A stretch of 64,000 bases of DNA from Bacillota bacterium (GTDB lineage: Bacteria; Bacillota; Limnochordia; Darwinibacteriales; DTU012). The stretch's first letter is position 1, and every line of letters begins with the position of its first letter. The DNA lies in the NCBI GenBank assembly GCA_012521185.1, contig JAAYMV010000014.1, forward strand, positions 3,082-67,081. Direction: 5' to 3'. A program made the translations under genes and the position numbers. This document shows, piece by piece, positions 8,121 through 53,924 of the stretch. The notes under the pieces are model-generated. The model did not search any database. It was given only the letters and a program-made list of their open reading frames with translations, and was not told the origin of the DNA.

Positions 8121-8138
8121 AGCTAGTTAGTTTGATTC

Positions 8139-8163
8139 GTGCAGCCTTAGCCTTAGGCTGCAC
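8139..8163. terminator. Bidirectional terminator between cheX (+) and ung (-)
   Basis: GTGCAGCC-ttagcctta-GGCTGCAC hairpin flanked by A/T-rich runs. Confidence 0.55.
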
Positions 8164-8168
8164 ATATT

Positions 8169-8849: not shown

Positions 8850-8974
8850 ATCTTTCTCCTTTTGCCTCACTTTCCTAACATTAACTCTAACATATTTTTA
8901 ATGTTCTGGTCAATCATCATGATTAAGTGGTATAATAGAAACTAGCGTGAGATATATGCTAAGGAGTGTAGAAA

Positions 8975-23444: not shown

Positions 23445-23464
23445 TTTTCTCGGCCTCCTAATGA

Positions 23465-24910
23465 CTAAAAGAAATAATCGATTACAGAATTTACTAAAGG
23501 CATACAGAGCTGTGGCCAGATTCCTAAAGCTAAGGCTGTCATCACCAGCAGAATAGTTGGAACTAGCATTAAGAACCCATTGGTACCTAGTTTGATAGGT
23601 TGTAGATGATTAGTTGTGTTTTTGGTAAATGCAGACACTACAATAGGCAGATAGTAAAATGCGTTTAATAGTCCGCTAATCAATAATACGATGACTAAGG
23701 GCCAGTAACCACTAACAGTACTTCCTTGCATTAAGTAGTATTTACTCCAAAAACCATTCAGTGGTAGCATGCCAACCATACCTAAGCTAACTATACCAAA
23801 AGCAATAAAGACAAGCGGAAGACTAGGCCCTAAACCTTTCACGTCACTAACTTTTACTTTTCCAGTTTTTTCTGTAATTAGCCCAACAGAAAAGAACAGA
23901 GTAATTTTCAGGATTCCATGATTGATCATTTGAAATAAAGCACCGATTAAACCGATTGGATGTAAGGTAAAAGCGCCTAATAAAATATAAGATAATTGAC
24001 TAATTGTAGAATAAGCTAGTCGTTTCTTCAAGACATCTTGTTTCATCGCGATTAAGGAGCCTACTATAATTGTTATGGATACGATAACTAAGGCAATGGG
24101 ACCGACTTTTAACTCGCTCAATAGGCTATGCCCATAAACTGAATAGATTACTCTTAAGAGCCCGAATACGCCAGCATTTACAACTGCTACAGCATGGAGT
24201 AGTGCACTAATTGGTGTTGGTGCTACCATTGCTTGAGGCAGCCAGCCGTGTAATGGCATGACTGCTGCTTTTACCCCAAAGCCAATTAAAAATAATAAGA
24301 AAATCCAACCCATGCCTGGTTTGGCTTCAAGATTAGCAAGTAGAGGAGCATTACCAAAGGTTAAGTTTCCTTCAGTCCAAATCCAGACTGCTACTAGACC
24401 AGCTAAGATGAAGGCTGCACCAATTAGACTATAGATAATATAGCGGTTCCCAGCTTTAATTGCTTCTTGATCTCGATTGTAAATTACCAATGGATAGGTA
24501 GTAAATGTTAGTAATTCATAGCAAATATAAAGTACTAATAGATTCCCTGCTAAAGCAATGCCAAGAGTGACTCCAGCAGAGATTAAAAAGTAGGCAAAAT
24601 AACTTCGTTGCCGCGGTTTATCAGCCATGTAACCAAAAGAATAGATAGTTGCAAATACCCATAAAGTAGAGGATAGCAGGGCAAAGACCATGCCTAACGG
24701 GTCAGGCCTGAGACCTTCATCAATACCAACTAACACTGATTTATAGCCGAGGACATTTGGCAGCAGTCGCCAAGTAAACAAGGCTGTTAGTACGCTGGTA
24801 ACTAGTACAAGGGTATTTCTTCTGTTTTTACTAATTTTTCGCAAGTTAGCGATCAGCGTTCCACCGATTGTTCCTGTAAGAATTGGTAAAAGCACATTAA
24901 AAGTTGACAT
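23465..24910 (-). CDS. Mrp antiporter subunit D-like (NuoM/N-type), second copy
   Basis: 481 aa with the conserved WLPQAMVAPTPISALLHA region. RBS GGGGGG. Confidence 0.7.
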   Translation of the reverse strand: MSTFNVLLPILTGTIGGTLIANLRKISKNRRNTLVLVTSVLTALFTWRLLPNVLGYKSVLVGIDEGLRPDPLGMVFALLSSTLWVFATIYSFGYMADKPRQRSYFAYFLISAGVTLGIALAGNLLVLYICYELLTFTTYPLVIYNRDQEAIKAGNRYIIYSLIGAAFILAGLVAVWIWTEGNLTFGNAPLLANLEAKPGMGWIFLLFLIGFGVKAAVMPLHGWLPQAMVAPTPISALLHAVAVVNAGVFGLLRVIYSVYGHSLLSELKVGPIALVIVSITIIVGSLIAMKQDVLKKRLAYSTISQLSYILLGAFTLHPIGLIGALFQMINHGILKITLFFSVGLITEKTGKVKVSDVKGLGPSLPLVFIAFGIVSLGMVGMLPLNGFWSKYYLMQGSTVSGYWPLVIVLLISGLLNAFYYLPIVVSAFTKNTTNHLQPIKLGTNGFLMLVPTILLVMTALALGIWPQLCMPLVNSVIDYFF

Positions 24911-24942
24911 AATATAACCCCCCCGTTTAGCTTGATTACTGC

Positions 24943-26433
24943 TTATTGTCCTAACAGCATAGAAGCTGCTTGAGAGGCAAGCGTTAGTACTGGTCTAGGG
25001 AAAATGCCTAAAAGCAGGACAGTTCCAGCTAGTATTAAAATAGGTACTATCATGATAGTGTTTTCTTTGAGTTCGGCATAGTCTTGATTAGTAGTAAAGT
25101 ATGCCTGTTTAATAATTGGGAACAAATAAATTGCCGCCAAAATACTTCCAGCTAAAAGTACTAAAATCGCTAACCAGTTACCAGCTTCTAAGCTACCTAA
25201 TAATAGATTCCATTTTCCAATAAAACCCGAAAATAACGGTATGCCTGTCATTCCTAAGGAAACCACTGTAAAGGCTCCCATAGTTAATGGCATTTGTTTT
25301 CCAATTCCAGTTAAATCCTTAATTTGACTTTTACCGGTTTTTATTAAGATAAAGCCTGCTATTAAAAAGAGCGCCGTTTTAATCAAGGCATGACTAAAAA
25401 TATGGAAAAAAGCACCAGTCAATCCTGCTTGATTGTTTAAGCCCAGGCCTAAAAATATGTATCCTATTTGAGCAATAGTTGAAAAAGCAAATCTGCGTTT
25501 AAGCTCTGTTTGGGCGATGGCAAAGATTGAACCAGCGATGATCGATCCCATTCCTAGCAGTAATAGAATATCAGATATGTTTAAGCTGGCAACAATTAAC
25601 GGCCCAACTGCAATATAGAATACTTTTACTAGTCCTAAAACATATCCTTTTACTGATATAGCTGATAAAACAGCACTTGCTGGTGTAATGGCAGATGAGT
25701 GAGCATCAGGTAACCAGACATGTAAAGGAAAGACTGCCGATTTAATACCGAAGCCGACAATGAAAAAGGATAGACTAACCCAAAGAGCATACTGATAATT
25801 GCTCCAGGTCTGAGCGAGTTCGTGATTGACAAAGAGCATATTTAAGTTTCCAGTTAAGTTGTACAGAAAACCAATACCACCCAGAACGAAACATGAGCCT
25901 AAAGTAGCCAAGATTAGATATTTGAAAGTAGCTTCAGTGGACCGAGCATCGCCTTTCGCACCGACGATTGCACAACCACTAATGGTAGCAACTTCAATAA
26001 ATACATAGAGATTGAATAAGTCGTGACATAAAGCCATACCACATAATGCTGCTGTTAATAACATAAATAAAGTTAAAAACCAAGTTGCTCTTACCTTATT
26101 ACCTAACTCATCTGCTAAAGAAGGTAGAGCATAAACTAGAATCAATAAGTTTATTAAACCAATCATTATTAAAAATAGTGTACTTAAAGGATCAATCGTA
26201 ATTTCTAATCCCCAGGGAGCTTCCCAGCCAGCTAAAATATATCTAAAGCTGCCTTTAGCTAGAACTTGTGTTGCTAAAAATATACCGCCAAATAGGACGA
26301 AAAATTGTGTTGCTAAAGCTAAAAATCCAACAATACCATAACGCCGATATTGCATAAAGACAGGTAGTAGGTAGGCACTAAATAATGAAGCGATAACAAT
26401 TAAGATCGGCGCGTTTTCTTTAACTAGAGCTAC
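24943..26433 (-). CDS. mrpD: Mrp antiporter subunit D (NuoM/N-type)
   Basis: Conserved WLPDAHSSAITPASAVLSAISVKG region. The likely start is at 26433 (GAGGG + 8 nt) rather than 26490, leaving a 14-nt overlap with mrpC. Confidence 0.7.
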   Translation of the reverse strand, partial: VALVKENAPILIVIASLFSAYLLPVFMQYRRYGIVGFLALATQFFVLFGGIFLATQVLAKGSFRYILAGWEAPWGLEITIDPLSTLFLIMIGLINLLILVYALPSLADELGNKVRATWFLTLFMLLTAALCGMALCHDLFNLYVFIEVATISGCAIVGAKGDARSTEATFKYLILATLGSCFVLGGIGFLYNLTGNLNMLFVNHELAQTWSNYQYALWVSLSFFIVGFGIKSAVFPLHVWLPDAHSSAITPASAVLSAISVKGYVLGLVKVFYIAVGPLIVASLNISDILLLLGMGSIIAGSIFAIAQTELKRRFAFSTIAQIGYIFLGLGLNNQAGLTGAFFHIFSHALIKTALFLIAGFILIKTGKSQIKDLTGIGKQMPLTMGAFTVVSLGMTGIPLFSGFIGKWNLLLGSLEAGNWLAILVLLAGSILAAIYLFPIIKQAYFTTNQDYAELKENTIMIVPILILAGTVLLLGIFPRPVLTLASQAASMLLGQ

Positions 26434-26818
26434 CATTGTTTTTGCCCTCATTTCTAATTTCAAATATTTCATTAGCATCCATAGTTCCATAAAAACGGTA
26501 AAGTTTGATAATTAATGCTAAAGCAAATCCAGTTACACTAATACTAACAACTATACCAGTTAACATGAGCCCGGTTGGTAAAGGATTGATGTAAAGAGCT
26601 TCAGGCTGAGCAAGATCTACTATCGGAGGTACTCCTCCCCGGATGTTTCCTGTCGCCACGTAAAATAGGAAAATTGAACTTTCCATAATGTTAATACCGA
26701 GCAGTTTCTTAAGTAAATTTGAATTAGATAGCACTGTGTAACAACCAATTCCAAAAATGATTAAAGAACCAAGAAATGGATAATTGTTTAATAGTTTGGC
26801 TCCGATAGTTAACTCCAC
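26420..26818 (-). CDS. mrpC: Mrp antiporter subunit C (NuoK-like)
   Basis: 132 aa with three TM helices and a NuoK-like pattern (FGIGCYTVLSNSNLLKKLLGINIMESSIFLF). GTG start after GAGGAGG. Confidence 0.7.
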   Translation of the reverse strand: MELTIGAKLLNNYPFLGSLIIFGIGCYTVLSNSNLLKKLLGINIMESSIFLFYVATGNIRGGVPPIVDLAQPEALYINPLPTGLMLTGIVVSISVTGFALALIIKLYRFYGTMDANEIFEIRNEGKNNGSSS

Positions 26819-26821
26819 TGA

Positions 26822-27241
26822 TTATTCCTCCTCTGTTAGAGTAAAAAATAGCGTGACCATGGTACTGGCTACTTTTAACCCGACTCCAAAAGTAATCAAA
26901 AAGATTAATCCGCCAGAAAATAAGTTTCCTGGTTGGCCAACAGCTACTGCACCTTTATTTAAGAGAAAGCCAGCGCCTCGCAATACTCCAACTAAACCCA
27001 TTAATCCATACCAAAGGGTTCCGAAGCTTTCAATTAAGTTTGTAATCTTATGCGGGATCTTTTCTTGACCTTTTTCGGCACCAAAAACTAAACTGTAACA
27101 AATAAAACCTACAGCTACAATGATTCCTCCTGCAAAGCTGCCGCCGGGACTTAGGTGACCATGGAAGATGACATAAATGCCAAACATCTGTATAAATGGT
27201 AAAAGGATTAGAACAACTTTTTTCAATATGAAATCTAACAT
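26822..27241 (-). CDS. Mrp antiporter subunit B, C-terminal segment (MbhF-like)
   Basis: HGHLSPGGSFAGGIIVA motif characteristic of the MnhB C-terminal part. Confidence 0.6.
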   Translation of the reverse strand: MLDFILKKVVLILLPFIQMFGIYVIFHGHLSPGGSFAGGIIVAVGFICYSLVFGAEKGQEKIPHKITNLIESFGTLWYGLMGLVGVLRGAGFLLNKGAVAVGQPGNLFSGGLIFLITFGVGLKVASTMVTLFFTLTEEE

Positions 27242-27256
27242 ATGCTAAGCCCCTTT

Positions 27257-27547
27257 CTAGTGCTGTTCACCTTTCTTTAGCGTAATCAAGACAGCCATAA
27301 TAGATGTAAACAAAACAGTGGCCTCAATTAACGTGTCATAAGAACGGTAGTCGAGGATGATTGCTGTTACAATATTTAATACACCAGTTTCTTCTAAGGC
27401 GTTGTTTACATAGTGTTCATAAACATAGTTATGGGCAGGATTGTCAACATTTCCATAAGGTGGCAATTCTGCAACCGCTAACATAAAGACATATAACGCC
27501 ATAATAACTAAAATCATCGCTAAAATAGGTACTAATCGTTTAGCCAT
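27257..27547 (-). CDS. Mrp antiporter subunit B core segment (MbhE-like)
   Basis: NIVTAIILDYRSYDTLIEATVLF is the hallmark MnhB motif. RBS GAAAGGTGA. Confidence 0.65.
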   Translation of the reverse strand: MAKRLVPILAMILVIMALYVFMLAVAELPPYGNVDNPAHNYVYEHYVNNALEETGVLNIVTAIILDYRSYDTLIEATVLFTSIMAVLITLKKGEQH

Positions 27548-27548
27548 T

Positions 27549-27800
27549 TTACTTCACCTTTCTAGTTGTTCGCATAATTAAGGCGATCATTAACGTGGTG
27601 GTAGCCACTCCTGCCGCTGCCTCGGTGATTGCCAAATCTGGCGCATTCATTCGCAGCCAAATTAGAACCATAATTAAACCATAAACTCCGAATACAATTA
27701 CTACATAAAGTAAATCTTTCATAAAGTTAATGGCAATAGCAATAGTGATTAAGAAACAAATCAGTATAATGTTAATAATATCTGGTCCAGCAAAACTCAT
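27549..27800 (-). CDS. MrpB-related small membrane subunit (DUF4040/MbhD-like)
   Basis: 83 aa with three TM helices, starting at the internal Met (MSFAGPD) preceded by AGGGAGG. The longer ORF to 27869 would overlap mrpG by 65 nt. Confidence 0.5.
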   Translation of the reverse strand: MSFAGPDIINIILICFLITIAIAINFMKDLLYVVIVFGVYGLIMVLIWLRMNAPDLAITEAAAGVATTTLMIALIMRTTRKVK

Positions 27801-27804
27801 CAGA

Positions 27805-28128
27805 TTACCTCCCTTTAGCCTTTGGTTTAAAATATGGCCGATTACCGTGGAGCAAGGCCACTTTGGCAATGATGTGACTCATAGTAGGGTTAATTGTCCA
27901 AAAGATAGCACCAATTGCCAGCAATTTAATTCGTAATAAATGATCAGAGGCTAGCAAAATTAGTCCTAGCAAGGTTAAACCAAAGCCAAGAGTATCTCCC
28001 AGAGCAGCTGCGTGTAATTTATTATACGGATCAGGCATTCTAATTAGATTAAAAGAACCTATACTAAAGAAGATAAATGCTACCAAAAACAGAATAAAAA
28101 CTACGACATTTATAATCATCAATTTCAC
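27805..28128 (-). CDS. mrpG: Mrp antiporter subunit G
   Basis: NLIRMPDPYNKLHAAALGDTLG matches the MnhG signature (…RFPD.Y.RLHA…TLG). Confidence 0.7.
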   Translation of the reverse strand: MKLMIINVVVFILFLVAFIFFSIGSFNLIRMPDPYNKLHAAALGDTLGFGLTLLGLILLASDHLLRIKLLAIGAIFWTINPTMSHIIAKVALLHGNRPYFKPKAKGR

Positions 28129-28143
28129 TTCCTTAAAATTTAA

Positions 28144-28455
28144 TTAGTCTTTCGGTGTGGTCTGAGCATAAATATCAGCTAACTTCGCGACAGCTTTTTC
28201 ATGATTAACAGGTAGCAGGAATCTGAGTGTGGCGATTGTGCCCACAAGTCCACATAAGGTAAAAACGATAACTACATCAATAAAGGAAAAATTGTTTTGT
28301 AAAAACGCTAGTAATAAGATTATGGTACAAATTTTAGTTGTTAGTGAATTCACTACCACAATCCGGTCAGCAGCATAAGGCCCGCGAATTAAACGAGTGA
28401 CTTCTAACATCATTAAAACTAGAATTCCAACCAGCAAGAATCTTAAAGCGATCAT
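28144..28455 (-). CDS. mrpF: Mrp antiporter subunit F
   Basis: 103 aa with three TM helices and an RGP…DR motif near the N-terminus. Confidence 0.65.
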   Translation of the reverse strand: MIALRFLLVGILVLMMLEVTRLIRGPYAADRIVVVNSLTTKICTIILLLAFLQNNFSFIDVVIVFTLCGLVGTIATLRFLLPVNHEKAVAKLADIYAQTTPKD

Positions 28456-28952
28456 TATTTGTTCCCCCTGTATGTTTCAAGTTCTTGAATCATTTTGATT
28501 AGTTTACTATTATGTACACTATCGGCTAGGTCTTGGCTGATCGCGTGAACCACAAATTGGTCAGTATCGGGATTCACGTCGATGGTAACGGTTCCAGGAG
28601 TAATTGTGATTGAATTAGCTAATAAAATTCTACCCCATCTAGTCGCAAGATTTGGCTGAAATACTACAAATTTGGGATTGATCTTTGTTTTCCCAGCCAA
28701 TAAAATTTTAGCTACTTGAATATTAGAGCTAATGATTTCTCCTAACAATGCAAAGAGATAAACTAAAAATTTAAGATACAGTTTGGGATGGGGTAAATTT
28801 TCTGGCAGTAACTGGACAGATTCACCCCAAAACCAGGCTAAAAATACAGAAATAATTAATCCAGTTAATAAATGCTGAGCATTAAAAGCTTGGGTCAGAA
28901 CTAACCAAAAGCCAAATAAAAGGATAAAAAAGCTTAAGCGATTTTTATGCAT
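28455..28952 (-). CDS. mrpE: Mrp antiporter subunit E
   Basis: 165 aa. LANSITITPGTVTIDV matches the MnhE signature. First gene of the operon. Confidence 0.7.
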   Translation of the reverse strand: MHKNRLSFFILLFGFWLVLTQAFNAQHLLTGLIISVFLAWFWGESVQLLPENLPHPKLYLKFLVYLFALLGEIISSNIQVAKILLAGKTKINPKFVVFQPNLATRWGRILLANSITITPGTVTIDVNPDTDQFVVHAISQDLADSVHNSKLIKMIQELETYRGNK

Positions 28953-29255: not shown

Positions 29256-29765
29256 ATGCCTAATAGAACGGTTTTAATGCATGGTAAGGAAGTAAAATTA
29301 TACGGAAATGAATTGGAACTAAATACCAAAGCGCCTGACTTTACGTTAATCGATAATGATTTAAATAAAGTTAGCTTACAGGACTTTGGTAACCAAGTTA
29401 AGTTAATTAGTGTGGTACCTTCTTTGGATACAGGGATCTGTGATCAACAGACACGACGTTTTAATCAAGAAATAGTGAGTTATCCCAATGCAGTAGTAAT
29501 TACCGTTAGTGTTGATTTACCCTTCGCCCAGAAGCGGTGGTGCGGGGCATCTGGTTTGGATAATGTGATTACCTTATCCGATCATTTTGATGTTAATTTT
29601 GGCAAAGCTTATGGTGTTTTAATCGAAGATTTACGCTTGCTAAGTAGGGCGATTTTTGTATTAGATCAAGATAATACAGTTGTTTATCATGAATATTTAC
29701 CAGAAGTTGGTAAACACCCTGATTATGAAAAAGCGTTAGCTGCATTAAAAAGCTTAACCTCATAG
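29256..29765 (+). CDS. tpx: Thiol peroxidase (atypical 2-Cys peroxiredoxin)
   Basis: 169 aa. The N-terminus and peroxidatic Cys context ([10 protein letters not shown], here [12 protein letters not shown]) are characteristic of Tpx. Confidence 0.85.
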
Positions 29766-29907
29766 CAGGACGCTGGAAATAAATGTAGAACAATCAATCA
29801 TGGGAGAAAAGGGCTAAGTAGTAAGACTGGCAGTGCTGGTTTTGGCAGCTTTAGCTGCTAAGCTAGCATTAAGCTAATATATTAAACATTTTATGAGGAG
29901 GATGTCA

Positions 29908-30501
29908 ATGAAAAGTTTAAAAGGAACAAGAACAGCTGAAAATTTACTGAAAGCATTTGCTGGCGAATCTCAAGCAAGCAATCGCTACATGATCTATGCT
30001 TCTGTTGCCGATAAAGAAGGGTACAAGCAAATTCGCAATATTTTCTTAGAAACAGCAGATCATGAAAGAGAGCATGCTAAAAGATTTTGGAAATTCTTAG
30101 TTCAAGGTTTCGATGGAGAAATGCCAACAAACATTATGATTAATGCTGGCTATCCGGTTGCTCAAGGTAGCACTTTGGAAAACCTAAAAGCTGCAGCTGC
30201 AGGTGAAAAGGAAGAATTTACTGACTTATATCCATCCTTTGCAGATGTTGCTGAAGAAGAAGGATTCCCAGAAGTAGCAGCAGCTTTCCGCAACATTTGT
30301 GTATCTGAGCAAATGCATGAAGCTCGTTATCTAAAATTAGCTGATAACGTAGAAAAAGATTTAGTATTCAAGAAAAACGAAAGCATTGTTTGGAAATGCT
30401 CTAACTGTGGATATTTACATGAAGGCGATGCTGCTCCAGAAGCATGCCCTGCCTGTGTACATCCAAAAGCATACTTTGAAGTATTTAAAGAAACATACTA
30501 G
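29908..30501 (+). CDS. rbr: Rubrerythrin (ferritin-like diiron domain + C-terminal rubredoxin-like CxxC…CxxC)
   Basis: ExxH diiron motifs (ETADHEREHAK, EQMHEARY) and C-terminal CSNCGY…CPACVHPK. Likely start MKSLKGT (GAGGAGG + 6 nt). Confidence 0.85.
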   Translation: MKSLKGTRTAENLLKAFAGESQASNRYMIYASVADKEGYKQIRNIFLETADHEREHAKRFWKFLVQGFDGEMPTNIMINAGYPVAQGSTLENLKAAAAGEKEEFTDLYPSFADVAEEEGFPEVAAAFRNICVSEQMHEARYLKLADNVEKDLVFKKNESIVWKCSNCGYLHEGDAAPEACPACVHPKAYFEVFKETY

Positions 30502-30537
30502 ACTCAAGAAAGCTCGCCTAGGAAAAGGCGAGCTTTT

Positions 30538-31872
30538 TTAATCTTTTTGTTTTCTAAAGATTAATAAGACACCATCTTCTTGCAGATAGCGATTTTTGAT
30601 AGCAATCGCTTTTACATCAAGGTGAAGTGGTTGATTATTGTTTAACGATTCAGTTCGTAATTCAAAACGGTTGTTTTGTAAACTCTGATGTAGAGTTTTT
30701 TGTAGCTGATCGGTTAAAGATGGTTCTTGTAATAAAAAGTGAATAGGTCTTTCTAAAACTTGACTGAGTCGAACGCCAAGAATATCTTCAGCTGCTGGAT
30801 TCATCATGGTGATTCTAGTGTACAAGTCAGTAATTACAATACCATCTTCAATGTTATTAAGGATTGTGCTAGTTTGATCTCTTTTAGCTTCTAATTCTTT
30901 AAGTAACATGTCCACTTCAAAGCGGTCAAAATCTATGCTAGCTGCTACTTCTGGTTGTGAGACTTGGACTGGAGTGGACTGTAAATCTTCATCAATTTCT
31001 TGTTGCTTGCTAATTAGGTCTTGATTTTCTTGTCTTAATTTTTTGTTGATTTCTCTTACTGATTGTAAATCTACTTCTGTTAGTCTAAGTACTTTTTCTA
31101 ATCGTTCAGCTTCAGCCTGCAAAGCAGTATGACTTTGCTGTAGTTTTTTTAGTTCCAATTCCAGTTCGGTTTTTTCTTTCTGAATTTGTTCTAAGTTAGT
31201 TTGCGTTTCTTCAGCGTCATTACCATTTGCCTCAGTTGCAACCGCTGCGCGTAGTTCCATTAAGTTGGTTACGTCATTAAGTAACAAGTAGATTCTGGCA
31301 ACCTTGTCACGGTCATACTCGACAGCAGTCGTTACATTTGCCCAGCAATTCTTGCCTAACTTATTGCGGACTTTAAAAACTCCAAGGCTAGGTTCACTTT
31401 GCTTTGATTGAAGTGCTTTTTCAATAGCTTCATGATCATTTTTGTAAAAGAGGGTTGAAACACCACTTGACATTAAGATATCCTCAGCATTTAATCCTGT
31501 TAGTCGCGCAGTTGCTTTGTTGACTTCTATGATTCGCAAGGAATCGTTTAGAACTACTATTGGGGTTCCAGCGGTAGCTATGCAATGACTTTTTGCTTCT
31601 ATTTGTTCGTTAAGTATTAGTTTTTCATTATTAGTGCGATCGATCAAACCGCTAGCATAAATAGAAAAGCCCAACACTGATAAAACCACAATTAATCGGA
31701 TAATGATCGGTATTAGACCAGGAGTAACTAGGGCTTGAGTATAATCAAGCTCTGTATTTAATTTTAGTAAATTGATAGTATCAAGGACCCAGTACACTAA
31801 AGCAATCAATAAGCCTAGCATAATAAGTTTTTTATCTTGCTTCTGATTAGTTTGCATCTTAAACTCCTCCAT
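30538..31872 (-). CDS. Membrane-anchored PAS/coiled-coil sensor protein without recognisable output domain
   Basis: Two N-terminal TM helices, a PAS-like segment, a ~90-aa E/Q/L-rich coiled coil and a second PAS-like segment. No kinase, GGDEF or HD domain seen. Confidence 0.5.
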   Translation of the reverse strand: MEEFKMQTNQKQDKKLIMLGLLIALVYWVLDTINLLKLNTELDYTQALVTPGLIPIIIRLIVVLSVLGFSIYASGLIDRTNNEKLILNEQIEAKSHCIATAGTPIVVLNDSLRIIEVNKATARLTGLNAEDILMSSGVSTLFYKNDHEAIEKALQSKQSEPSLGVFKVRNKLGKNCWANVTTAVEYDRDKVARIYLLLNDVTNLMELRAAVATEANGNDAEETQTNLEQIQKEKTELELELKKLQQSHTALQAEAERLEKVLRLTEVDLQSVREINKKLRQENQDLISKQQEIDEDLQSTPVQVSQPEVAASIDFDRFEVDMLLKELEAKRDQTSTILNNIEDGIVITDLYTRITMMNPAAEDILGVRLSQVLERPIHFLLQEPSLTDQLQKTLHQSLQNNRFELRTESLNNNQPLHLDVKAIAIKNRYLQEDGVLLIFRKQKD

Positions 31873-32017
31873 CTCAATAGATATTCCTTTTATCTTAATT
31901 CAGCGTATTAACTGAAATTTCCTTTTTATGTTATAATAATACAAGGGAAATATTTACGAAACTAGAAATTAACATAAAACTCTAGTGCATTTGTCAGTAG
32001 TAATGGAGGTTAGTTTG

Positions 32018-35000
32018 ATGGCTCGACTAGTTCATATTGGCATTGATGTAGGTTCAACAACTGTAAAAATTGTTGTTATAGATCAAGACTTCCAGTTGTT
32101 GTACAGTAAGTATCAGCGACACTACTCGGAAATTCGAGAAGCAGTAGCTGATTTATTACAAGAAGCCTATCAAGAATTTTCGGACACTAAGATTACTGTG
32201 ATGGTTACTGGTTCCGGCGGTATTGCTATTGCTGAGCACCTTGGTGTGGAATTTATTCAGGAAGTAATTGCAGGCGCAAAAGCGATTGAAACCTTTCATC
32301 CTGAAACAGATGTGGCTATTGAGTTAGGTGGCGAAGATGCGAAAATCATCTATTTTAGAGGTGGAATTGATCAGCGAATGAACGGGATTTGTGCTGGCGG
32401 AACAGGGTCATTTATTGACCAGATGGCGACCTTGTTAAAAACAGATGCCGCTGGCTTAAATGAGCTAGCCAAAAATTATAAAACAATTTATCCGATTGCA
32501 GCCCGCTGTGGAGTTTTTGCCAAAACAGATTTACAGCCATTGATTAATGAAGGTGTTGCTAAAGAAGATTTGGCAGCCTCAGTTTTTCAAGCAGTAGTTA
32601 TTCAAACTATTAGTGGATTAGCTTGTGGTCGGCCAATTAGAGGTAATGTGGCTTTCCTCGGTGGCCCCTTATCATTTTTACCTGAACTAAGACAGCGATT
32701 TGTTGAGACTTTAAACCTAACCGATGAGCAGGTTATAGTTCCTGAACATCCACAGTTATACATTGCTTTGGGTGCAGCAATTGCTTCTAAAAATACTCAA
32801 CCACTTGCTTTTTCTGATCTAGCGAGTGCTATAACTACATTAAGAAATAGTACTATTCAAGAAACAGATAGATTAGCACCGTTATTTAAAAATGAACAAG
32901 AGTTAGCTGAGTTTAGACAGCGCCATGGCCGTTATGCAGTAGAAAGAGGCAATCTTGCTGATTTAGAGGGTAATTGTTTTGTTGGCATTGATGCTGGTTC
33001 TACAACAACGAAAGTAGCGGTAATCGATGAGGATGGAAAATTGCTGTACACTTATTACAGTAGTAATCAGGGCAGCCCGCTCCAAACAACGATTAATGCC
33101 TTAAAGGAATTCTATTACTTAATGCCAAAAACTGGTCGTATAGCAAATTCGGTAGTGACTGGTTATGGTGAAGGCTTATTAAAAGCGGGATTAAAAGTTG
33201 ATATTGGTGAAATTGAAACAATTGCCCACTATAAAGCTGCTGAATTTTTCTGCCCAGGAGTAGATTTTGTTCTAGATATTGGCGGTCAAGATATGAAAAG
33301 TTTGCGGATTCGTGATGGTGTGATTGAAAGTATTTCATTAAATGAGGCTTGTTCTTCTGGTTGCGGTTCATTTTTAGAGACCTTTGCTCATTCCTTAGGT
33401 CTCGATATTAAAGAGTTTGCTGCAGAGGCTTTATTGGCAGAAAAGCCTGTAGATCTTGGGTCGCGCTGTACAGTGTTTATGAACTCTCGCGTAAAACAAT
33501 CTCAAAAAGAAGGAGCAACTGTTGGTGATATTTCTGCTGGATTATCCTACTCGGTTATAAAAAATGCTTTGTTTAAGGTTATTAAATTGCGTGATAATAG
33601 TGAGCTTGGTGGGAAAATTGTTGTTCAAGGCGGTACTTTTCATAATGATGCCGTATTAAGAAGCTTTGAACTCTTAGCGGAACGGGAAGTTATTCGTCCC
33701 GATATTTCTGGCATTATGGGAGCGTTTGGTGCAGCCTTAATCGCAAGGGAGCGCTACCAAGAAGGATATCAATCTACTTTATTGAGTGCTAAAGAAATAG
33801 ATAACTTGCAAGTTAAAACCAGAATTACTCGCTGTCGTCTTTGTTCTAACAATTGTATGTTAACTATTAACCAGTTTGGTTCAGGCAATCGTTATATTTC
33901 AGGTAATCGCTGCAGTAAGGGAGCAGGGGAAGAAGACCGCAGTGAAAAATTACCTAATCTTTATCAGTATAAGTATGAACGGCTTTTTCAATATCAGCCC
34001 TTGCCAGAGAAATTAGCTCCTCGCGGTAGGATAGGTCTTCCACGTGTCTTAAACATGTATGAAAATTATCCTTTCTGGTTTACTTTCTTTACCGAGCTTG
34101 GTTTTTCTGTAGTACTATCAGAGAGGTCTTCGAAAGCTGTTTATGAAAAGGGGATTGAGACAATTCCTTCTGAGTCTGTTTGTTATCCGGCAAAAATGGT
34201 TCATGGCCATATTGTAGACTTAATTGATAAAGGCGTTGATGTAATCTTTTATCCATGCTTGACTCATGAACGACAGGAGCAAAAATCAGCTGAAAACCAC
34301 TTTAACTGTCCGATAGTTACTTCTTATCCGGAAGTAATTAAGAATAATGTTGAGATACTGAGAGAGAAGAATATTAAATTCCTTTATCCCTTCTTGCCCT
34401 ACGATCATAAAGGGCGGTTAATTAAGCGGCTTCACGAAGAATTAGGTGAGTTGTTGGGTTTATCAAAGAGTGAAATTCGGCAGGCGATAAACAGGGCTTG
34501 GCAAGAACAAGATGAGTTTAGAGCAGATATTAAAGAACAAGGGGAAATTACGCTACAGTTAATTAAAGAAAAGGGATTAACTGGTATTGTTTTAGCTGGC
34601 CGTCCTTATCATATAGACCCAGCTATTAACCATGGTATTCCTGAATTAATCAACAGTCTAGGTATGGCTGTATTAACCGAAGATTCAATTTCCCATTTAG
34701 ATTCTGCAGAAAGACCATTGCGGGTAGTAGATCAATGGGCTTATCATTCACGGTTATATGATGCAGCCACTTATGTTTCTAAATCTGACAATTTAGAGTT
34801 AGTACAATTAAACTCCTTCGGTTGTGGATTAGATGCCATTACCACTGATCAAGTGGAGGAACTTTTAGCTGCAAAAGGTAAAATCTATACTTGTTTAAAA
34901 ATTGACGAAGGTGATAATCTAGGTGCTGCTCGTATTCGTTTGCGCTCTCTAAAGGCTGCAATCATTGAAAGAAGAGAAAAAGGCTATCAACCAGTGCTTG

Positions 35001-36262
35001 AAAATAACATAGTGAAACGTAAGCTGTTCACCAAAGAAATGCGTCGACAGCATACTATTTTAGCGCCACAAATGTCTCCAATACATTTTGACTTGTTAGA
35101 AAAAGCTTTTAGGCTCTCTGGCTATAACATAGTAGTATGTCCTTCAACAGATCGGGAAGCTATCGATATTGGATTAAAATATGTTAATAATGATGCTTGC
35201 TATCCGGCAATTATTGTCATGGGGCAGTTAATTGAGGCCTTACAATCAAATAAATATGATCCAGATAATACGTCTGTATTGGTTACCCAGACTGGGGGAG
35301 GATGTCGAGCTACAAACTACATTGGATTTTTGAAAAAAGCACTAGTGGATGCTGGTTTTCCCCAAGTCCCTGTCTTATCCCTAAATCCTAAGGGGATGGA
35401 TGATAACCCAGGCTTTAAAATTACTCTTCCACTGCTCCATCGAGCTTTAATGGCAGTTATTTATGGGGATTTGCTAATGCGCCTGTTGTACCGTGTCAGA
35501 CCATACGAAAAAATTAAAGGCTCAGCTAATATACTTTATGAAAAATGGTCGGAAATTTGTAAGAGGACATTAGAAAAACCAGGAATCATAACTTTTAAAA
35601 ATACCATTAAACAAATTGTCAACGAGTTCGATAATTTCGAGATTATAAAAAAAACCAAGCCCAGAGTGGGATTGGTAGGCGAGATTTTAGTGAAATACCA
35701 TCCGACTGCCAACAATAATGTTGTTGAGATCGTAGAATCTGAGGGAGCTGAAGCAGTGGTACCGGATATGACGGATTTCTTCTTATACTCTGCTTTAGGG
35801 CTTGATTTTAGATACCGTTATTTATCTGGTACGAAGATTGAACAAATTCTATCGCGCACTGCGGTTCAAATCATTGAATTGTATCGTAAAACACTGCGTC
35901 AAGCATTAGAGACTAGTAAACGCTTTTCACCGCCAAAATCTATCTATGAAATCGCAGAAAATGCATCAAGGATCATTTCTTTGGGTCATCAAACTGGCGA
36001 AGGTTGGTATTTGACAGGTGAGATGGTAGAGTTAATTGAAAATGGCGTGGAGAATATTGTGTGTATGCAGCCCTTTGCTTGTTTGCCGAATCATGTAACT
36101 GGCAAAGGGATGCTGCGAGAATTAAAGCGAGTTTATCCGAATAGTAATGTAGTAGCAATTGACTATGATCCTGGTGCCAGTGAAATTAACCAGTTAAACC
36201 GGATTAAATTGATGTTAGCAGCGGCTTTCAATAATTGTGAACTACAAGCACAAGCTCAATAG
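32018..36262 (+). CDS. Giant fusion protein: two BadF/BadG/BcrA/BcrD (HgdC-type) activase ATPase domains plus 2-hydroxyacyl-CoA-dehydratase-like domains
   Basis: Two copies of the actin-fold ATPase start motif ([15 protein letters not shown] and [15 protein letters not shown]). Cys-rich linker (CRLCSNNC…C). Long C-terminal region resembling HgdB/BcrB-like dehydratase subunits. Likely start at 32018 (GGAGG + 8 nt). Confidence 0.7.
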
Positions 36263-36292: not shown

Positions 36293-37669
36293 TTAATCTA
36301 TTAGTTGATCGGCTAGCCAGTTAATATATTCTTCGATGGCTGTGTAACCGCTAGGCATGATTTGATTGTGATTACCATTTTTAACTCCTTTTTCTTCTTC
36401 CCACCAATCAGGGATACCATTACGATTTTTGTCTGTGCGGTCGATATCGATTGTTTTAGTTGTAATATCTTGAACTTTTGGCCAAGCGCTAACTACTTCA
36501 CTTTGTGAATCAATGATTTTACCAGTTCTGTTTCGCACATCATTGACTACACGAGCATCGATGGCATCTCGGGGAAAGGCGCCAGCTTTGGCTAAAACTT
36601 CGTCAAAAGCCATCTCAGCAGAACTAGTAGTTACATAAGCAACTGGAAACGGTTCGGTTGCTTTTAGATAAGTAGACTTGCTAGGACCACTACCAGAGAC
36701 TAAAGACCATTGATCACTAGGCAAATTACCATTCATCATATTGCCTAAAAAATATCCCTGAGCGTAGGGGGCATTATCCCTAAAAGCATAGGTATTAGAG
36801 GATGAATTCGGTCCTGGTTTGTAATAGTTGTTGATAAAGTTGTATTGAGTAATGGTATCAGTATCTTCATTGTTGCCGGCATAGGTACCGCCCCAGTTAT
36901 ACATTACATTATTGCGAATGTCAACTAAAAATCCGATTGGATCATCTTTATAAGAAGTATAGTTTCCTGGACGTGGATTACGCCCGCGATTATGCGCCCA
37001 TAGATTGTGATGGAAGCTAACTCTTTGCCCATTGCTACCCCTTATTAAGGAACCATAGCCATGAGGTCGTTTCTCATGATGTGATTCATTTAATGCTTCA
37101 CTAATGATACTCCATTGGATAGTAACTAGATCGCTATCTGATACAGAAAGAGTTTCATCAATACCCCAACTTGAAGTGACATGATCAAGGATTACATTGT
37201 TAGCTCGCAATATTTCGATACTGTCTTTTTCTTGTTTGATAAGATCCCCTAAGCGAACGCGCAGATGACGGACAACTACATGATCAGTTTGAATGGCAAA
37301 ACGCTTATTGGTTAAGGTTATGCCTTTTGGTGAAGTTTGTCCAGCAATAGTAATATAAGGGTTTCTAATTATCAATTCTTCTTTTAATTCAATAATCCCA
37401 GACACTTCAAAAACCACAATTCTTGGTCCACTAGCTTCTACAGCCTCCCGTAGACTGCCCGAACCACTATCATTTAGGTTAGTAACAATATAAACCTTTC
37501 CGCCCCGGCCGCCTCGTGCATCGGCTCCAAAGCCTTCTGCGCCAGGAAAGGCTAAAACTTTACCTGCAACAGGTTCTTTCATTTTAATAAATATATAATC
37601 ACAACCAGTCAATAAACAAAGAGCGACAATTAAAGTGATTAGTACGTAGAATTTTTGTATCTTCTTCAT
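36293..37669 (-). CDS. Pectate lyase, PL1-like β-helix, predicted lipoprotein
   Basis: Lipobox LLTGC. GGRGG…VTNLNDSG…GSLREA…PRIVVFEVSG N-terminal pattern. ILDHV…WGIDE (vWiDH-like) and RNPRPG (RxPxxR-like) motifs. C-terminal NRNGIPDWWEEE motif. Confidence 0.6.
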   Translation of the reverse strand: MKKIQKFYVLITLIVALCLLTGCDYIFIKMKEPVAGKVLAFPGAEGFGADARGGRGGKVYIVTNLNDSGSGSLREAVEASGPRIVVFEVSGIIELKEELIIRNPYITIAGQTSPKGITLTNKRFAIQTDHVVVRHLRVRLGDLIKQEKDSIEILRANNVILDHVTSSWGIDETLSVSDSDLVTIQWSIISEALNESHHEKRPHGYGSLIRGSNGQRVSFHHNLWAHNRGRNPRPGNYTSYKDDPIGFLVDIRNNVMYNWGGTYAGNNEDTDTITQYNFINNYYKPGPNSSSNTYAFRDNAPYAQGYFLGNMMNGNLPSDQWSLVSGSGPSKSTYLKATEPFPVAYVTTSSAEMAFDEVLAKAGAFPRDAIDARVVNDVRNRTGKIIDSQSEVVSAWPKVQDITTKTIDIDRTDKNRNGIPDWWEEEKGVKNGNHNQIMPSGYTAIEEYINWLADQLID

Positions 37670-37680
37670 AACAATCTCCT

Positions 37681-39024
37681 TTACAAGTTATTTATCAGAG
37701 AACTAGCCTTCCAATTTAAATATTCTTCGATGACAGTGTAGCCACTATCGGTGATTCGTTTAGGTAGCTCTGGATCATTAGCATCTAGACCATGCTTAAT
37801 TTCCCACCAATCTGGGATTCCGTTTCGATTAGTGTCTACTTCTGGCTCTCCAGTAAGGATTGGCCAGCCGCCAACTTCATCTTGGGAATTTATAATCTTA
37901 CCAGTCCCATTGATTACATCAGTAATAATTCGCTGATCCACTGGATCGCGGGGTAAAGCACCCACATGGTTTAACACTTTTTGAAAGGCTATTTCGGCAT
38001 GGTCAGTATTGATTGGATAGGTAGGAAAGGGCTCGGTCTTTTTATAATCATCTCGGTTTGTAGCATAGCCTGTAACAATGCTCCAAGGGTCAGCTGGTAA
38101 TTGCCTATTCATATAGTTGCCTGCAAAATAGGCAGCTGATTGAGAACAGCGATCATCAAAGGCAACATTATGATTAGCTCTAGTACTGGGACCAGCTAGA
38201 TAATAATTATTTATAAAGTTGTATTTTGTGATTGAGTCTGAGTCATGGTTGTTTCCACAATAATCACGCCAGTTATAAAAGACATTATTGCGGAAATCTA
38301 CTAGTAAACCTTGGGGATCAAGATCATAACTGTTATAATTTCCTGGCCGAGGCATCCGCCCACGATGATGAGCCCATAGATTATGATGGAAGCTAACTCG
38401 TTCACCATAGCCGCCGCGCAGTAAAGAGCCATACCCATGTTCACCTTTGGCATGTACTGATTGATTTAGACTTTCGGCAATCATGCAATATTGGACAGTT
38501 ACTAAGTCGCTGCTAACTACAGATAGTGTTTCATCGGTTCCCCAACTAGTAGAAACATGATCTAGAATTACATTATTAGCGCTCCTAATTTCTAATGTAT
38601 CTAATTCTCTACCAGAAACATCGCCGGGACGCACCCGCAGATGACGAATAATAGTTTGAGCAGCCCGTACTCCTAACTCATAATTAGCAAGAGTGATACC
38701 GCCTGGTGAAGTTTGACCTGCTATAGTTATGTAGGGATTTCTAATAATTAGTGGAGACTCTAGCTGAATAATACCAGATACTTCAAAAACTACGATTCTT
38801 GGCCCGCTAGCTTCGACTGCTTCCCGTAGGCTGCCAGGTCCGCTGTCATTGAGATTAGTGACGATGTAAACATCACCACCACGACCACCAATTGTATAAG
38901 CACCGAATCCTTCGGCTTCCGGAAAGGCTAACAGTTGATCAGTTGAGGCCATTCCCATGGAACATAAGCTAAATAGCAAAACTGTCAGAGTGAGTAGTGC
39001 AGCTATCGGATTAATTCTACTCAT
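37681..39024 (-). CDS. Pectate lyase, PL1-like β-helix, secreted
   Basis: Signal peptide. Same motif set as the neighbouring gene (ILDHVSTSWGTDE, HRGRMPRPG, NRNGIPDWWE). The two genes are diverged paralogues. Confidence 0.6.
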   Translation of the reverse strand: MSRINPIAALLTLTVLLFSLCSMGMASTDQLLAFPEAEGFGAYTIGGRGGDVYIVTNLNDSGPGSLREAVEASGPRIVVFEVSGIIQLESPLIIRNPYITIAGQTSPGGITLANYELGVRAAQTIIRHLRVRPGDVSGRELDTLEIRSANNVILDHVSTSWGTDETLSVVSSDLVTVQYCMIAESLNQSVHAKGEHGYGSLLRGGYGERVSFHHNLWAHHRGRMPRPGNYNSYDLDPQGLLVDFRNNVFYNWRDYCGNNHDSDSITKYNFINNYYLAGPSTRANHNVAFDDRCSQSAAYFAGNYMNRQLPADPWSIVTGYATNRDDYKKTEPFPTYPINTDHAEIAFQKVLNHVGALPRDPVDQRIITDVINGTGKIINSQDEVGGWPILTGEPEVDTNRNGIPDWWEIKHGLDANDPELPKRITDSGYTVIEEYLNWKASSLINNL

Positions 39025-52964: not shown

Positions 52965-53924
52965 ATGAAGGTTGCAGTATTAGGTACCGGAAGATGGGGC
53001 TCATTTTTAGGGTGGTATCTTAATCGAATAAATCATGACGTATTACTGTGGGGTAAAGCCGATTCTCGTGGTTTTCAAGAATTATCTCGCACAAGAAAAA
53101 ATGATTACTTAACGATTGATGACCGAATTACATTATCGAGTGATTTAAATCAGGCGATTAACCATGGAGACGTCCTAGTAATTGCCATAGCCTCCCAGCA
53201 ATTGCGTAATTTAGCTAGACAGTTAAATGAATTTGATTTACAAGGGAAAACTATTGTACTGTGCATGAAAGGTCTTGAGGAGGAAACCGGTAAACGGTTG
53301 ACTCAGATCATTAAAGAGGAAATCCTGTCCCCGTGCGAAGTCGCGATTTGGGTCGGTCCCGGTCATGTGCAAGATTATTTAGCCGGAATACCAAATTGTA
53401 TGGTAATTGGTTCTGACAACATTAATACAACTAAAATGTTGGTACAAGAATTTGCTAGTGATCTAATTCGTTTTTATTATGGACAAGATCTAATTGGTAA
53501 TGAAATTGGAGCAGCTGCTAAAAATGTGATTGGTATAGCCGCAGGTATGCTTGATGGCTTAAGTTATTCTAGCTTAAAAGGTGCTTTAATGGCTCGTGGT
53601 GCTCGTGAAATTTCTCGTTTAGTTAGAGCAATGGGAGGTAATGAGCTAACGGTTTATGGGCTCAGCCATCTTGGTGATTACTCTGCTACCTTGTATTCTA
53701 AATACAGTCATAACCGAGCCTATGGAGAGAGCTTTGTGAAGGGAGAAGAATTTCCAAAGCTGGCAGAAGGGGTAAGCACTGTTAAGGCCTTAATGGTCTT
53801 AGCTAAACGGTATGAGATAGAATTACCAATTTGCGAAAGTGTGTATATTGCAATTAATAAGAAAAAACCCGCAAAAGAGGTTTTATTAGATTTATTTATG
53901 CGCTCGGTCAAATTCGAGTTTTAA
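52965..53924 (+). CDS. NAD(P)H-dependent glycerol-3-phosphate dehydrogenase family protein (GpsA-like, divergent)
   Basis: N-terminal Rossmann VAVLGTGRWGS and a C-terminal GpsA-like helical domain (GNEIGAAAKNVIGIAAGMLDGL). Confidence 0.55.
   Translation: MKVAVLGTGRWGSFLGWYLNRINHDVLLWGKADSRGFQELSRTRKNDYLTIDDRITLSSDLNQAINHGDVLVIAIASQQLRNLARQLNEFDLQGKTIVLCMKGLEEETGKRLTQIIKEEILSPCEVAIWVGPGHVQDYLAGIPNCMVIGSDNINTTKMLVQEFASDLIRFYYGQDLIGNEIGAAAKNVIGIAAGMLDGLSYSSLKGALMARGAREISRLVRAMGGNELTVYGLSHLGDYSATLYSKYSHNRAYGESFVKGEEFPKLAEGVSTVKALMVLAKRYEIELPICESVYIAINKKKPAKEVLLDLFMRSVKFEF

Follow-up and report, generated by a model that had tools for sequence, protein, structure and literature searches.

Gene organization of the locus

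Within the analysed stretch of DNA (64 kb, in the following referred to as the window), a gene for a membrane-anchored PAS protein and a gene for a long protein with two ATPase modules are divergently oriented (Table 1). The latter, a putative plsA gene, is monocistronic and equipped with its own promoter-like site and ribosome binding site (RBS). Its ORF on the forward strand (31985 to 36262) comprises 1425 aa if counted from the GTG codon at 31985, which is the start used by the gene callers. The true start is likely the ATG codon at 32018, resulting in a predicted protein of 1414 aa, since a GGAGG motif (32005-32009) is located 8 nt upstream of this codon and the block of RBS and ATG is conserved in related contigs. 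In the initial annotation, the length of 1425 aa was combined with an intergenic spacer of 145 bp. This spacer is correct as the distance from the PAS gene to ATG 32018, whereas the length holds only for the GTG start. The end of the PAS gene is marked by a convergent, terminator-like hairpin (30506-30539). As stated before for this locus, no separate dehydratase or reductase partner is encoded in the surrounding genes.

Table 1. Coordinates of the genes, protein modules and regulatory features at the putative plsA locus.
Feature	Position	Strand	Evidence or remark
Membrane-anchored PAS-coiled-coil-PAS protein, 444 aa (neighbour; link to the enzyme system weak)	30538..31872	-	Pfam, NCBIfam
Promoter-like site for plsA: TTAACT, 18-nt spacer, TG-extended TATAAT	31908..31937	+	10/12 consensus matches plus TG
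Imperfect palindrome ATTTCCTTTTTAT / ATACAAGGGAAAT around the -10 hexamer	31917..31951	.	Candidate operator
Putative plsA (fused plsA-plsR)	32018..36262	+	1414 aa; collinear with C. perfringens PlsA followed by PlsR
Act1, first HgdC/BcrAD-type ATPase module, about aa 1-300	32018..32917	+	Pfam, TIGR00241
Act2, second ATPase module, about aa 318-590	32969..33787	+	Pfam, TIGR00241, PDB matches
Cys-rich linker C606-x2-C609-x3-C613-x18-C632	33833..33913	+	Outside every Pfam model
Red1, DUF2229, about aa 641-982; counterpart of the C-terminal third of PlsA from C. perfringens	33938..34963	+	PF09989
Red1-Red2 junction, about 20 aa (aa 983-1002)	34964..35023	+	Global alignment to C. perfringens
Red2, PlsR-equivalent, aa 1003-1414	35024..36259	+	43% identity to C. 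perfringens PlsR

Domain architecture of the long protein

The Pfam search revealed two BcrAD_BadFG and two DUF2229 domains in the long protein, giving the pattern B-B-D followed by a weak D, and the acyl-CoA dehydratase activase domain TIGR00241 was matched twice. Act1 carries the motif ELGGEDAK together with Cys125 and Cys164, and Act2 carries DIGGQDMK together with Cys445, Cys449 and Cys484. In a profile search of PDB sequences, Act1 matched MbdP (9gai_C, E 4.9e-16). Act2 matched the PDB activators 4eht_A, 1hux_A, 9gai_D and 7yyl_E with E-values from 1e-22 to 1e-36, and an alignment of the two modules with hhalign reached a probability of 99.5% (E 1.6e-22).

Red1 is covered by PF09989 with an E-value of 5.5e-99, and the second DUF2229 stretch, located in Red2, is weaker. 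The family PF06050 (HGD-D) could be detected neither in the long protein nor in C. perfringens PlsA/PlsR, even at E<=1. For the C-terminal half, single-sequence and profile searches of PDB sequences both missed the solved structures and returned only ATPase subunits. The folds of Red1 and Red2 match those of HadB/C, BzdN/O, MbdN/O and DCCP, the catalytic subunits of BCR/HAD enzymes, and it is this fold, at 7-14% identity, which suggests a catalytic likeness. The initial description of two activase modules followed by HgdB/BcrB-like domains was confirmed. Between Red1 and Red2, hhalign found a weak match of 71 columns (E 0.0037, probability 9%) and BLAST a local match with E 0.004, where both modules share the motif CYPA. 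These similarities are at most suggestive of an origin of Red1 and Red2 by internal duplication.

In total, 17 cysteines are common to the window protein and the C. perfringens enzyme and are distributed over Act1, Act2, the linker, Red1 (C722, C747, C764, C936) and Red2 (C1061, C1096, C1349, C1355). Across 120 homologues, C747 is the only one to vary (retained in 71%), the other 16 being invariant. Judging from sequence, all 17 are at candidate Fe-S positions. The invariant residues include all four cysteines of the linker (C606, C609, C613 and C632), which are also present in C. perfringens PlsA. In the predicted structure, the linker forms short beta-strands with a pLDDT of 60-74, and it may represent a metal or Fe-S site.

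Homology to validated plasmalogen synthases

The long protein was initially regarded as an orphan, which does not hold, as its homologues form more than 8000 clusters, the top ones with 67-70% identity over the full length. The closest named homologues belong to the Clostridia, and public names are '2-hydroxyacyl-CoA dehydratase' and 'acyl-CoA dehydratase activase-related'.

The function of the plasmalogen synthase PlsA-PlsR has been known since 2021, and E. coli makes plasmalogens upon heterologous expression of plsA-plsR or of a single-gene plsA. Clostridia are listed among the groups carrying plsA/plsR. PlsA sequence motifs were reportedly defined by Jackson et al. in 2021. The plsA-plsR operon of Clostridium perfringens was used as a reference and was recovered from a metagenome by means of the published cloning primers. 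Both primers were found exactly in the loci L030 and L026. Since they span 4199 bp in L030, which is the size reported for the CPE1194/1195 fragment, this locus could be authenticated as C. perfringens plsA-plsR. Its ORFs code for a PlsA of 975 aa and a PlsR of 420 aa. Genome scans with the E. faecalis plsA forward primer, exact as well as codon-degenerate, yielded nothing but one unrelated Chloroflexia contig (L001).

With the C. perfringens reference, the window protein forms a collinear alignment, in which aa 7-982 show 51% identity to PlsA and aa 1003-1403 show 43% identity to PlsR over 401 aa. The global alignment to PlsA-PlsR has 49% identity in 1386 aligned columns. Validated plasmalogen synthases reach similar values, as the single-gene enzymes of Enterococcaceae and Streptococcaceae have 48-55% (PlsA) and 41-42% (PlsR) identity to the C. 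perfringens enzyme. With a probability of roughly 0.8, the ORF is assigned to a single-chain anaerobic plasmalogen synthase, a fusion of PlsA and PlsR with the module order Act1-Act2-Red1-Red2.

The same architecture and chemistry would be expected for a glycerol ester reductase (Ger), which would fully reduce the sn-1 (perhaps also the sn-2) ester to a saturated alkyl ether, with Thermotoga maritima Tmari_0479 and Desulfatibacillum alkenivorans SHJ90043 as examples. Ger is described as a PlsA homologue with two activation domains and DUF2229. According to the Ger authors, the primary sequence does not at present separate PlsA, which forms a vinyl ether, from Ger, which forms a saturated one, and a diagnostic Ger signature does not yet exist. 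They also point out that minor quantities of alkyl ethers occur in some Bacillota, where plasmalogen synthesis might give rise to them as a by-product. Validated Ger proteins have C-terminal PF06050 segments (patterns BBDHDDH and BBDHDHDH), which were detected neither in the window protein nor in C. perfringens PlsA/PlsR at the threshold given above. This result, the level of identity to C. perfringens PlsA-PlsR, which forms plasmalogens, and the Clostridia as source of the nearest named homologues speak against a Ger-type enzyme, which is considered unlikely. A rule by which two activation domains indicate Ger and one indicates PlsA was rejected, as the validated C. perfringens PlsA has two BcrAD modules.

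Intergenic region and PAS gene

The -10 hexamer of the promoter-like site aligns with TAGAAT in related contigs. The site itself is a consensus match only; in total, the region holds as many of these sites as expected from shuffled sequence. The palindrome around this hexamer retains its core TCCTT...AAGGA in L013-L015, together with the block AATACAAGG. No Rfam family was found anywhere in the 64-kb window and, consequently, no riboswitch upstream of plsA. The window carries no rRNA either.

The description of the neighbouring protein as a PAS-coiled-coil-PAS membrane protein without an output domain was confirmed. Its 444 aa comprise hydrophobic segments at about aa 15-38 and 45-78, PAS domains at aa 104-202 and 335-439, and a region rich in E, L and Q (aa 205-300). 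Pfam matches are restricted to PAS models, with HisKA, HATPase, GGDEF and HTH all absent, and NCBIfam kinase models match across the PAS region only, far under their cut-offs. An interpretation of the gene as a truncated histidine kinase was discarded, as longer relatives (572-577 aa) contain a third PAS domain instead of a transmitter.

In a search of 5.8 billion proteins, specific homologues of the PAS protein were limited to two closely related clusters (P0122 and P0123), whose loci keep the gene order mrp-tpx-rbr-PAS-plsA. None of the eight other plsA contexts examined has the PAS neighbour; plsA there adjoins a MerR gene or a TetR gene, or has no regulator next to it. The MerR and TetR neighbours agree with a published TetR/AcrR gene upstream of pls in E. 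faecalis and, in this respect, with the assignment to plsA. The conservation of the gene pair therefore applies to one closely related lineage, as part of a larger syntenic block, and does not extend to the other contexts. The PAS gene is best described as a lineage-restricted neighbour, and its functional link to plsA is weak.

This also concerns the initial proposal that the PAS sensor regulates or acts with the activase, which loses weight with a pair confined to near relatives. In its full form, this reading describes the long protein as an uncharacterised 'CoA-substrate-specific enzyme activase' fusion with an acyl-CoA substrate, which the divergent sensor would regulate or be functionally coupled to. 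It would agree with the public names of the homologues, which still refer to acyl-CoA dehydratases and their activases, and with the retention of the gene pair and of the palindrome at the -10 hexamer in the related lineage, despite divergence of the PAS protein to 35% overall identity. In contrast, the window protein is homologous over its full length to an enzyme whose lipid substrate has been demonstrated, the retention of the pair within the syntenic block is explicable by common descent, the eight other contexts have no PAS neighbour, and neither a DNA-binding nor a kinase output domain is present in the PAS protein. An acyl-CoA activase coupled to the sensor is therefore regarded as extremely doubtful.

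The PAS protein could also be a dedicated partner of PlsA, for instance as a sensor of O2/redox or membrane state which tethers or gates the soluble synthase at the membrane, the site of its lipid substrate, or by controlling the shared promoter via a factor that binds the palindrome. Such a role is quite improbable; if true, it would represent a previously undescribed regulation of bacterial plasmalogen synthesis.

Two further observations were made in the plsA contexts. In other lineages, plsA is recurrently followed by an aldo-keto reductase gene. Ferritin-like or rubrerythrin genes of the oxidative stress response are repeatedly located near plsA. Together with the invariant four-Cys linker, these neighbours are minor leads.

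Proposed function

As a plasmalogen synthase, the long protein most likely uses ATP to reduce and dehydrate membrane phospholipids at their sn-1 acyl ester, giving a vinyl ether. According to the literature, the substrate of the PlsA family is a membrane phospholipid ester and not an acyl-CoA. Cofactors, electron path, lipid substrate and product are proposed here by analogy to the PlsA family and from the literature. Act1 and Act2 would form an intramolecular pseudo-dimer resembling the HgdC/HadI homodimer, with a bridging [4Fe-4S] cluster held by two cysteines per module (C125/C164 and C445 or C449/C484). This cluster would be reduced by a low-potential donor, for example ferredoxin or flavodoxin, and ATP hydrolysis would push the electron on to Fe-S centres of Red1 and Red2. 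Due to the fusion of activator and reductase/dehydratase in one chain, a separate activator or dehydratase partner is unnecessary.

The earlier view of a poorly understood architecture with unknown substrates is outdated, since this architecture is that of the PlsA/PlsR and Ger family, with the identities to the validated enzyme given above. The names '2-hydroxyacyl-CoA dehydratase' and 'CoA-substrate-specific enzyme activase' should be corrected to a member of the ether-lipid-forming PlsA/Ger family, and this assignment predicts plasmalogens in the uncultured pectin-degrading anaerobe from which the window originates. Contigs of this organism were found in Logan and ENA assemblies only. Regarding the enzyme family, nothing conceptually new is added and the finding is largely ordinary.

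Comparison with known enzyme systems

C. perfringens PlsA-PlsR (CPE1194/CPE1195; Q8XL48/Q8XL47) shares with the window protein the Pfam pattern, the two ATPase modules, the four-Cys linker and the cysteine positions in Red1 and Red2. In C. perfringens, the plsA stop codon is followed by a gap of 8 nt and the plsR start, whereas the window protein has a linker of about 20 aa at this position in one polypeptide. The gene neighbourhoods differ as well; in C. perfringens, the operon is preceded by a gene for a YgiQ-type radical SAM protein and followed by a two-component system.

Ger has the BBD core in common with the window protein and belongs to a homologous family, and it likewise turns an sn-1 ester into an ether under anaerobic conditions. 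By description, which is the level of this comparison, it differs in its product, a saturated alkyl ether, and in the reported PF06050 segments.

The single-gene PlsA proteins of Enterococcus faecalis (EF1327, Q835P9; 4248 bp) and Lactococcus cremoris (4311 bp) have the same fused order Act1-Act2-Red1-Red2 as the window gene of 4245 bp, a likeness drawn from published lengths and identities to C. perfringens. The gene upstream is reportedly of the TetR/AcrR type for those enzymes and the divergent PAS gene in the window.

To the subunits of the 2-hydroxyacyl-CoA dehydratase, class I benzoyl-CoA reductase and DCCP systems, the catalytic half of the window protein is 7-14% identical, and it differs from them by belonging to PF09989 instead of PF06050. 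A further difference from HadBC/HadI, HgdAB/HgdC, BzdNOPQ, MbdONQP and DCCP/DCCP-R is the combination of four modules in one chain.

Gene model and predicted promoter region of plsA

Judged by its sequence, the long ORF on the forward strand encodes a fused PlsA-PlsR-type ether-lipid synthase, for which plasmalogen formation is the favoured assignment (probability roughly 80%). The likely translation start of this gene, here called plsA, is the ATG at 32018 (1414 aa), with a GGAGG upstream of it at 32005-32009; related contigs keep the block AAGGAGGTTAGTTT-ATG. The start codons of plsA and of the divergent PAS protein gene are 145 bp apart, in agreement with the initial annotation.

The predicted -10 hexamer of the promoter-like site aligns with TAGAAT in relatives. 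Because plsA has this site of its own and the next downstream gene is convergent, it looks monocistronic. A pair of adjoining paralogs for PelZ-like pectate lyases is located 30 bp past its stop, and no terminator-like hairpin was detected between plsA and these genes. The palindrome around the -10 hexamer, whose core TCCTT...AAGGA is kept in three related contigs (L013-L015), could be an operator for some regulator, but no DNA-binding domain was detected in the PAS protein.

Features of the window and of homologous loci (positions without prefix refer to the window; L numbers denote contigs from the homolog and primer searches)
Feature	Position	Strand	Remarks
Long ORF (plsA)	GTG 31985 to stop 36262	+	1425 aa if GTG used
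Promoter-like site	31908-31937	+	TTAACT-18-TGnTATAAT, consensus match
Imperfect palindrome	31917-31951		ATTTCCTTTTTAT / ATACAAGGGAAAT; brackets predicted plsA -10 hexamer
PAS protein gene	30538..31872	-	444 aa; divergent from plsA
Act1 (ATPase module)	about aa 1-300		C125, C164
Act2 (ATPase module)	about aa 318-590		C445, C449, C484
Cys linker	33833-33913, aa 606-632		C606-x2-C609-x3-C613-x18-C632, between Act2 and Red1
Red1 (reduction/dehydration domain)	about aa 641-982		C722, C747, C764, C936
Red2 (reduction/dehydration domain)	aa 1003-1414		C1061, C1096, C1349, C1355
Rubrerythrin, thiol peroxidase	29256-30501		just past PAS gene
PelZ-like pectate lyases	36293-39024	-	convergent with plsA
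Family-11 rhamnogalacturonan lyases	13015-21268		three tandem paralogs
FG-GAP/RGL11-like gene	45543-47483		
Mrp antiporter operon	21603-28952	-	
Flavodiiron-type protein	54089-55279		
Aldo-keto reductase/ferredoxin fusion	61410-62636	-	
Other lipid-related genes	39-2346; 52965-53924		
GGDEF-EAL proteins	11637-12980; 56890-58593 (-)		second with N-terminal PAS domain
Aldo-keto reductase after plsA	L003:10238-11188, L007:10255-11199, L009:9255-10199, L012:9254-10198		
MerR/TipAS or TetR plus ferritin-like/DUF2383/rubrerythrin neighbours of plsA	L003:4447-5749, L007:4530-5833, L009:3505-4812, L005:5286-5912, L011:9313-9912		
YgiQ-type radical SAM gene, C. perfringens	L030:4414-6402		directly upstream of plsA
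Response regulator and histidine kinase, C. perfringens	L030:11131-13231		downstream of plsR

Domain architecture and conserved cysteines

As initially annotated, two BcrA/BadF/HgdC-type ATPase modules are located in one polypeptide: Pfam and NCBIfam matched two BcrAD_BadFG/TIGR00241 activase modules and two DUF2229 (PF09989) stretches. From their sequences, Act1 and Act2 are clearly recognizable as duplicates of each other (hhalign probability 99.5%, E 1.6e-22). Among solved structures, their matches are the activators HadI (4eht), HgdC (1hux), MbdQ/MbdP (9gai) and DCCP-R (7yyl_E), with E-values of 1e-16 to 1e-36. C445 and C484 of Act2 are 39 residues apart, as are C125 and C164 of Act1. The homodimeric activator HgdC holds one [4Fe-4S] cluster bridged by two cysteines per monomer, at about the positions of the Act cysteines, and the fused modules would most plausibly form an intramolecular pseudo-dimer.

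For the C-terminal half, single-sequence and profile searches of PDB chains matched nothing but ATPases. On the fold level it matches HadB/HadC (3o3m), BzdN/BzdO (8s02), MbdN/MbdO (9g87) and the double-cubane cluster protein DCCP (7yyl_C), of which only BzdN/BzdO were found by Foldseek at E<=1e-3 (probability 1.0). The modelled C-terminal half is thus related to dehydratase/reductase subunits by fold only (7-14% identity), and in this sense the HgdB/BcrB-like domains of the initial annotation were retained.

All 17 cysteines listed for the five segments are common to C. perfringens PlsA/PlsR, and 16 are found in every one of the 120 nearest homologs, the exception being C747 (present in 71%). 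The invariant four-Cys linker (CxxCxxxC-x18-C), found also in C. perfringens PlsA, is modelled as short beta-strands (pLDDT 60-74) and is not spanned by any Pfam model. It might bind an additional Fe-S cluster or zinc; no discussion of it as a metal site was found in the PlsA/Ger literature consulted for this comparison.

By homology and the published proposal, a low-potential donor would reduce the activator cluster, and ATP hydrolysis by Act1/Act2 would drive the electron into putative Fe-S centres of Red1/Red2. The sn-1 ester carbonyl of a phospholipid would then undergo two one-electron reductions, protonation and dehydration, resulting in the vinyl ether. A dehydratase or reductase partner had been reported missing nearby, and none was detected among the flanking genes by Pfam and NCBIfam, which is expected because activator and catalytic domains are on one chain.

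The PAS neighbour

The description of the neighbour as a divergent membrane PAS–coiled-coil–PAS protein without output domain was borne out. Pfam and NCBIfam matched only PAS models in it (aa 104-202 and 335-439), and neither a transmitter nor a cyclase or DNA-binding domain was detected. Two segments close to the N-terminus are hydrophobic (about aa 15-38 and 45-78), and a stretch rich in E, L and Q separates the PAS domains.

Among 5.8 billion proteins, single-sequence and profile searches identified specific homologs in two clusters only (P0122 and P0123, 572-577 aa). Their identity to the window PAS protein is 35% overall and 62% for the C-terminal PAS domain, and they have an extra middle PAS domain. 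On their contigs (L013-L015), the mrp operon, tpx, rubrerythrin and PAS genes are followed by a divergent gene whose product has 81% identity to window PlsA over its first 286 residues. The window Mrp-type operon for a multisubunit cation/proton antiporter is complete, and L013 has it in the same arrangement with tpx, rbr and PAS.

The PAS gene is absent beside plsA in seven distinct homolog contexts (67-70% identity). In four of these, a MerR/TipAS gene is located upstream; in most cases a ferritin-like gene precedes it and the gene immediately after plsA encodes an aldo-keto reductase. A TetR gene is adjacent in two and no regulator in one. Conservation of the gene pair is thus confined to one closely related lineage, where the pair is part of a larger syntenic block, and is explained by common descent. 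Nothing specific in these comparisons supports a functional link, and the proposed regulation of the enzyme by the sensor, or joint action of the two, is improbable. As two GGDEF-EAL proteins are encoded, one with a PAS domain, PAS signalling proteins also occur elsewhere in the window.

Genomic surroundings

Thiol peroxidase and rubrerythrin genes are located upstream of plsA, and the two PelZ-like pectate lyases, ribulokinase and AraD downstream. The window encodes rhamnogalacturonan and pectate lyases, pectinesterase, arabinose catabolism, the Mrp antiporter, rubrerythrin, Tpx and a flavodiiron protein, a predicted gene content that fits a pectinolytic, oxygen-stressed anaerobe. The three tandem family-11 lyases (~900 aa) have N-terminal HEAT repeats, and the FG-GAP/RGL11-like gene is a fourth, more distant relative. 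The flavodiiron-type protein combines an ODP metallo-beta-lactamase fold with flavodoxin, and one aldo-keto reductase is fused to a 2x[4Fe-4S] ferredoxin domain; both proteins are of kinds characteristic of strict anaerobes. Other lipid-related genes, not adjacent to plsA, encode DegV (a fatty-acid-binding family), a cardiolipin-synthase-like protein with two PLD domains, and GpsA.

On the Limnochordia-like contigs, plsA is followed in the same orientation, at a distance of 15-35 bp, by a gene for an aldo-keto reductase of 314-316 aa, an arrangement resembling an operon; no equivalent of the reductase gene adjoins plsA in the window. The reductase might act on an aldehyde or hemiacetal formed as a by-product, or be unrelated. 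Where MerR/TipAS or TetR genes adjoin plsA, ferritin-like, DUF2383 or rubrerythrin genes are close. The recurring proximity to oxidative-stress genes, on contigs of which several are interrelated, agrees with an antioxidant effect that has been reported for plasmalogens.

Comparison with characterised ether-lipid enzymes

The long protein had been regarded as an orphan of a poorly understood architecture with unknown substrates. The protein search revealed at least 8000 homolog clusters, and the best homologs (Alkaliphilus, Clostridium, Limnochordia and related MAGs; 67-70% identity, full length) continue to carry the names '2-hydroxyacyl-CoA dehydratase' or 'CoA-substrate-specific enzyme activase'. 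The architecture has been characterised since 2021: the C. perfringens operon plsA-plsR (CPE1194/1195) converts diacyl phospholipids to plasmalogens (PMC12838417; PMC9702350), and in Enterococcus, Lactococcus and Bifidobacterium one gene of 4248-4920 bp covers both parts, drawn as Act1-Act2-Red1-Red2 (PMC12838417). Plasmalogens were made in E. coli expressing plsA-plsR or single-gene plsA (PMC12838417; PMC9702350). The orphan label and the unknown-substrate framing are thus superseded by the PlsA/PlsR assignment, and the uncharacterised four-Cys linker and the lineage-specific PAS neighbour remain the points of note.

The C. perfringens reference was recovered via the cloning primers in Table S6 of PMC12838417. 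A metagenome scan with the codon-degenerate forward primer gave 45 loci, of which two (L030 and L026) contain both exact primers. In L030 these span 6694-10892 (4199 bp, equal to the fragment size reported for CPE1194/1195; PMC12838417), with ORFs of 975 aa (PlsA, from a TTG within the primer) and 420 aa (PlsR), 8 nt apart. For the E. faecalis gene, primer-based scans of the genome collection gave no plsA match. The C. perfringens locus also carries the YgiQ-type gene (Radical_SAM_N + DUF3362) and genes for an OmpR-type response regulator and a HAMP histidine kinase.

By BLASTP, aa 7-982 of the window protein are 51% identical to C. perfringens PlsA and aa 1003-1403 are 43% identical to PlsR, in the same order; the global alignment to PlsA+PlsR shows 49% identity over 1386 columns. 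For validated single-gene enzymes from lactic acid bacteria, identities of 48-55% and 41-42% to the same reference have been reported (PMC12838417), so that the window protein is as close to the founding member as enzymes shown to be active. The Pfam pattern agrees as well, with two BcrAD_BadFG domains followed by DUF2229 in C. perfringens PlsA and a weak DUF2229 in PlsR.

The homologous glycerol ester reductase Ger, a 'modified PlsA' of Thermotoga maritima and Desulfatibacillum alkenivorans, forms saturated 1-alkyl ethers and combines PF01869 twice with PF09989 and PF06050 segments (PMC13159169). Two activation domains were rejected as a mark of Ger, as C. perfringens PlsA has two itself. Specialists state that PlsA and Ger are not yet separable by sequence, and the window protein shares PF01869 twice and PF09989 with the published Ger architecture. 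Nevertheless, a Ger-like saturated product is rather improbable here: PF06050 was not detected in the window protein, and it is likewise absent from C. perfringens PlsA and PlsR, even at E<=1. Moreover, the identity to the plasmalogen-forming enzyme lies within the validated range, and its closest named homologs belong to the Clostridia, for which plsA/plsR are listed (PMC9702350).
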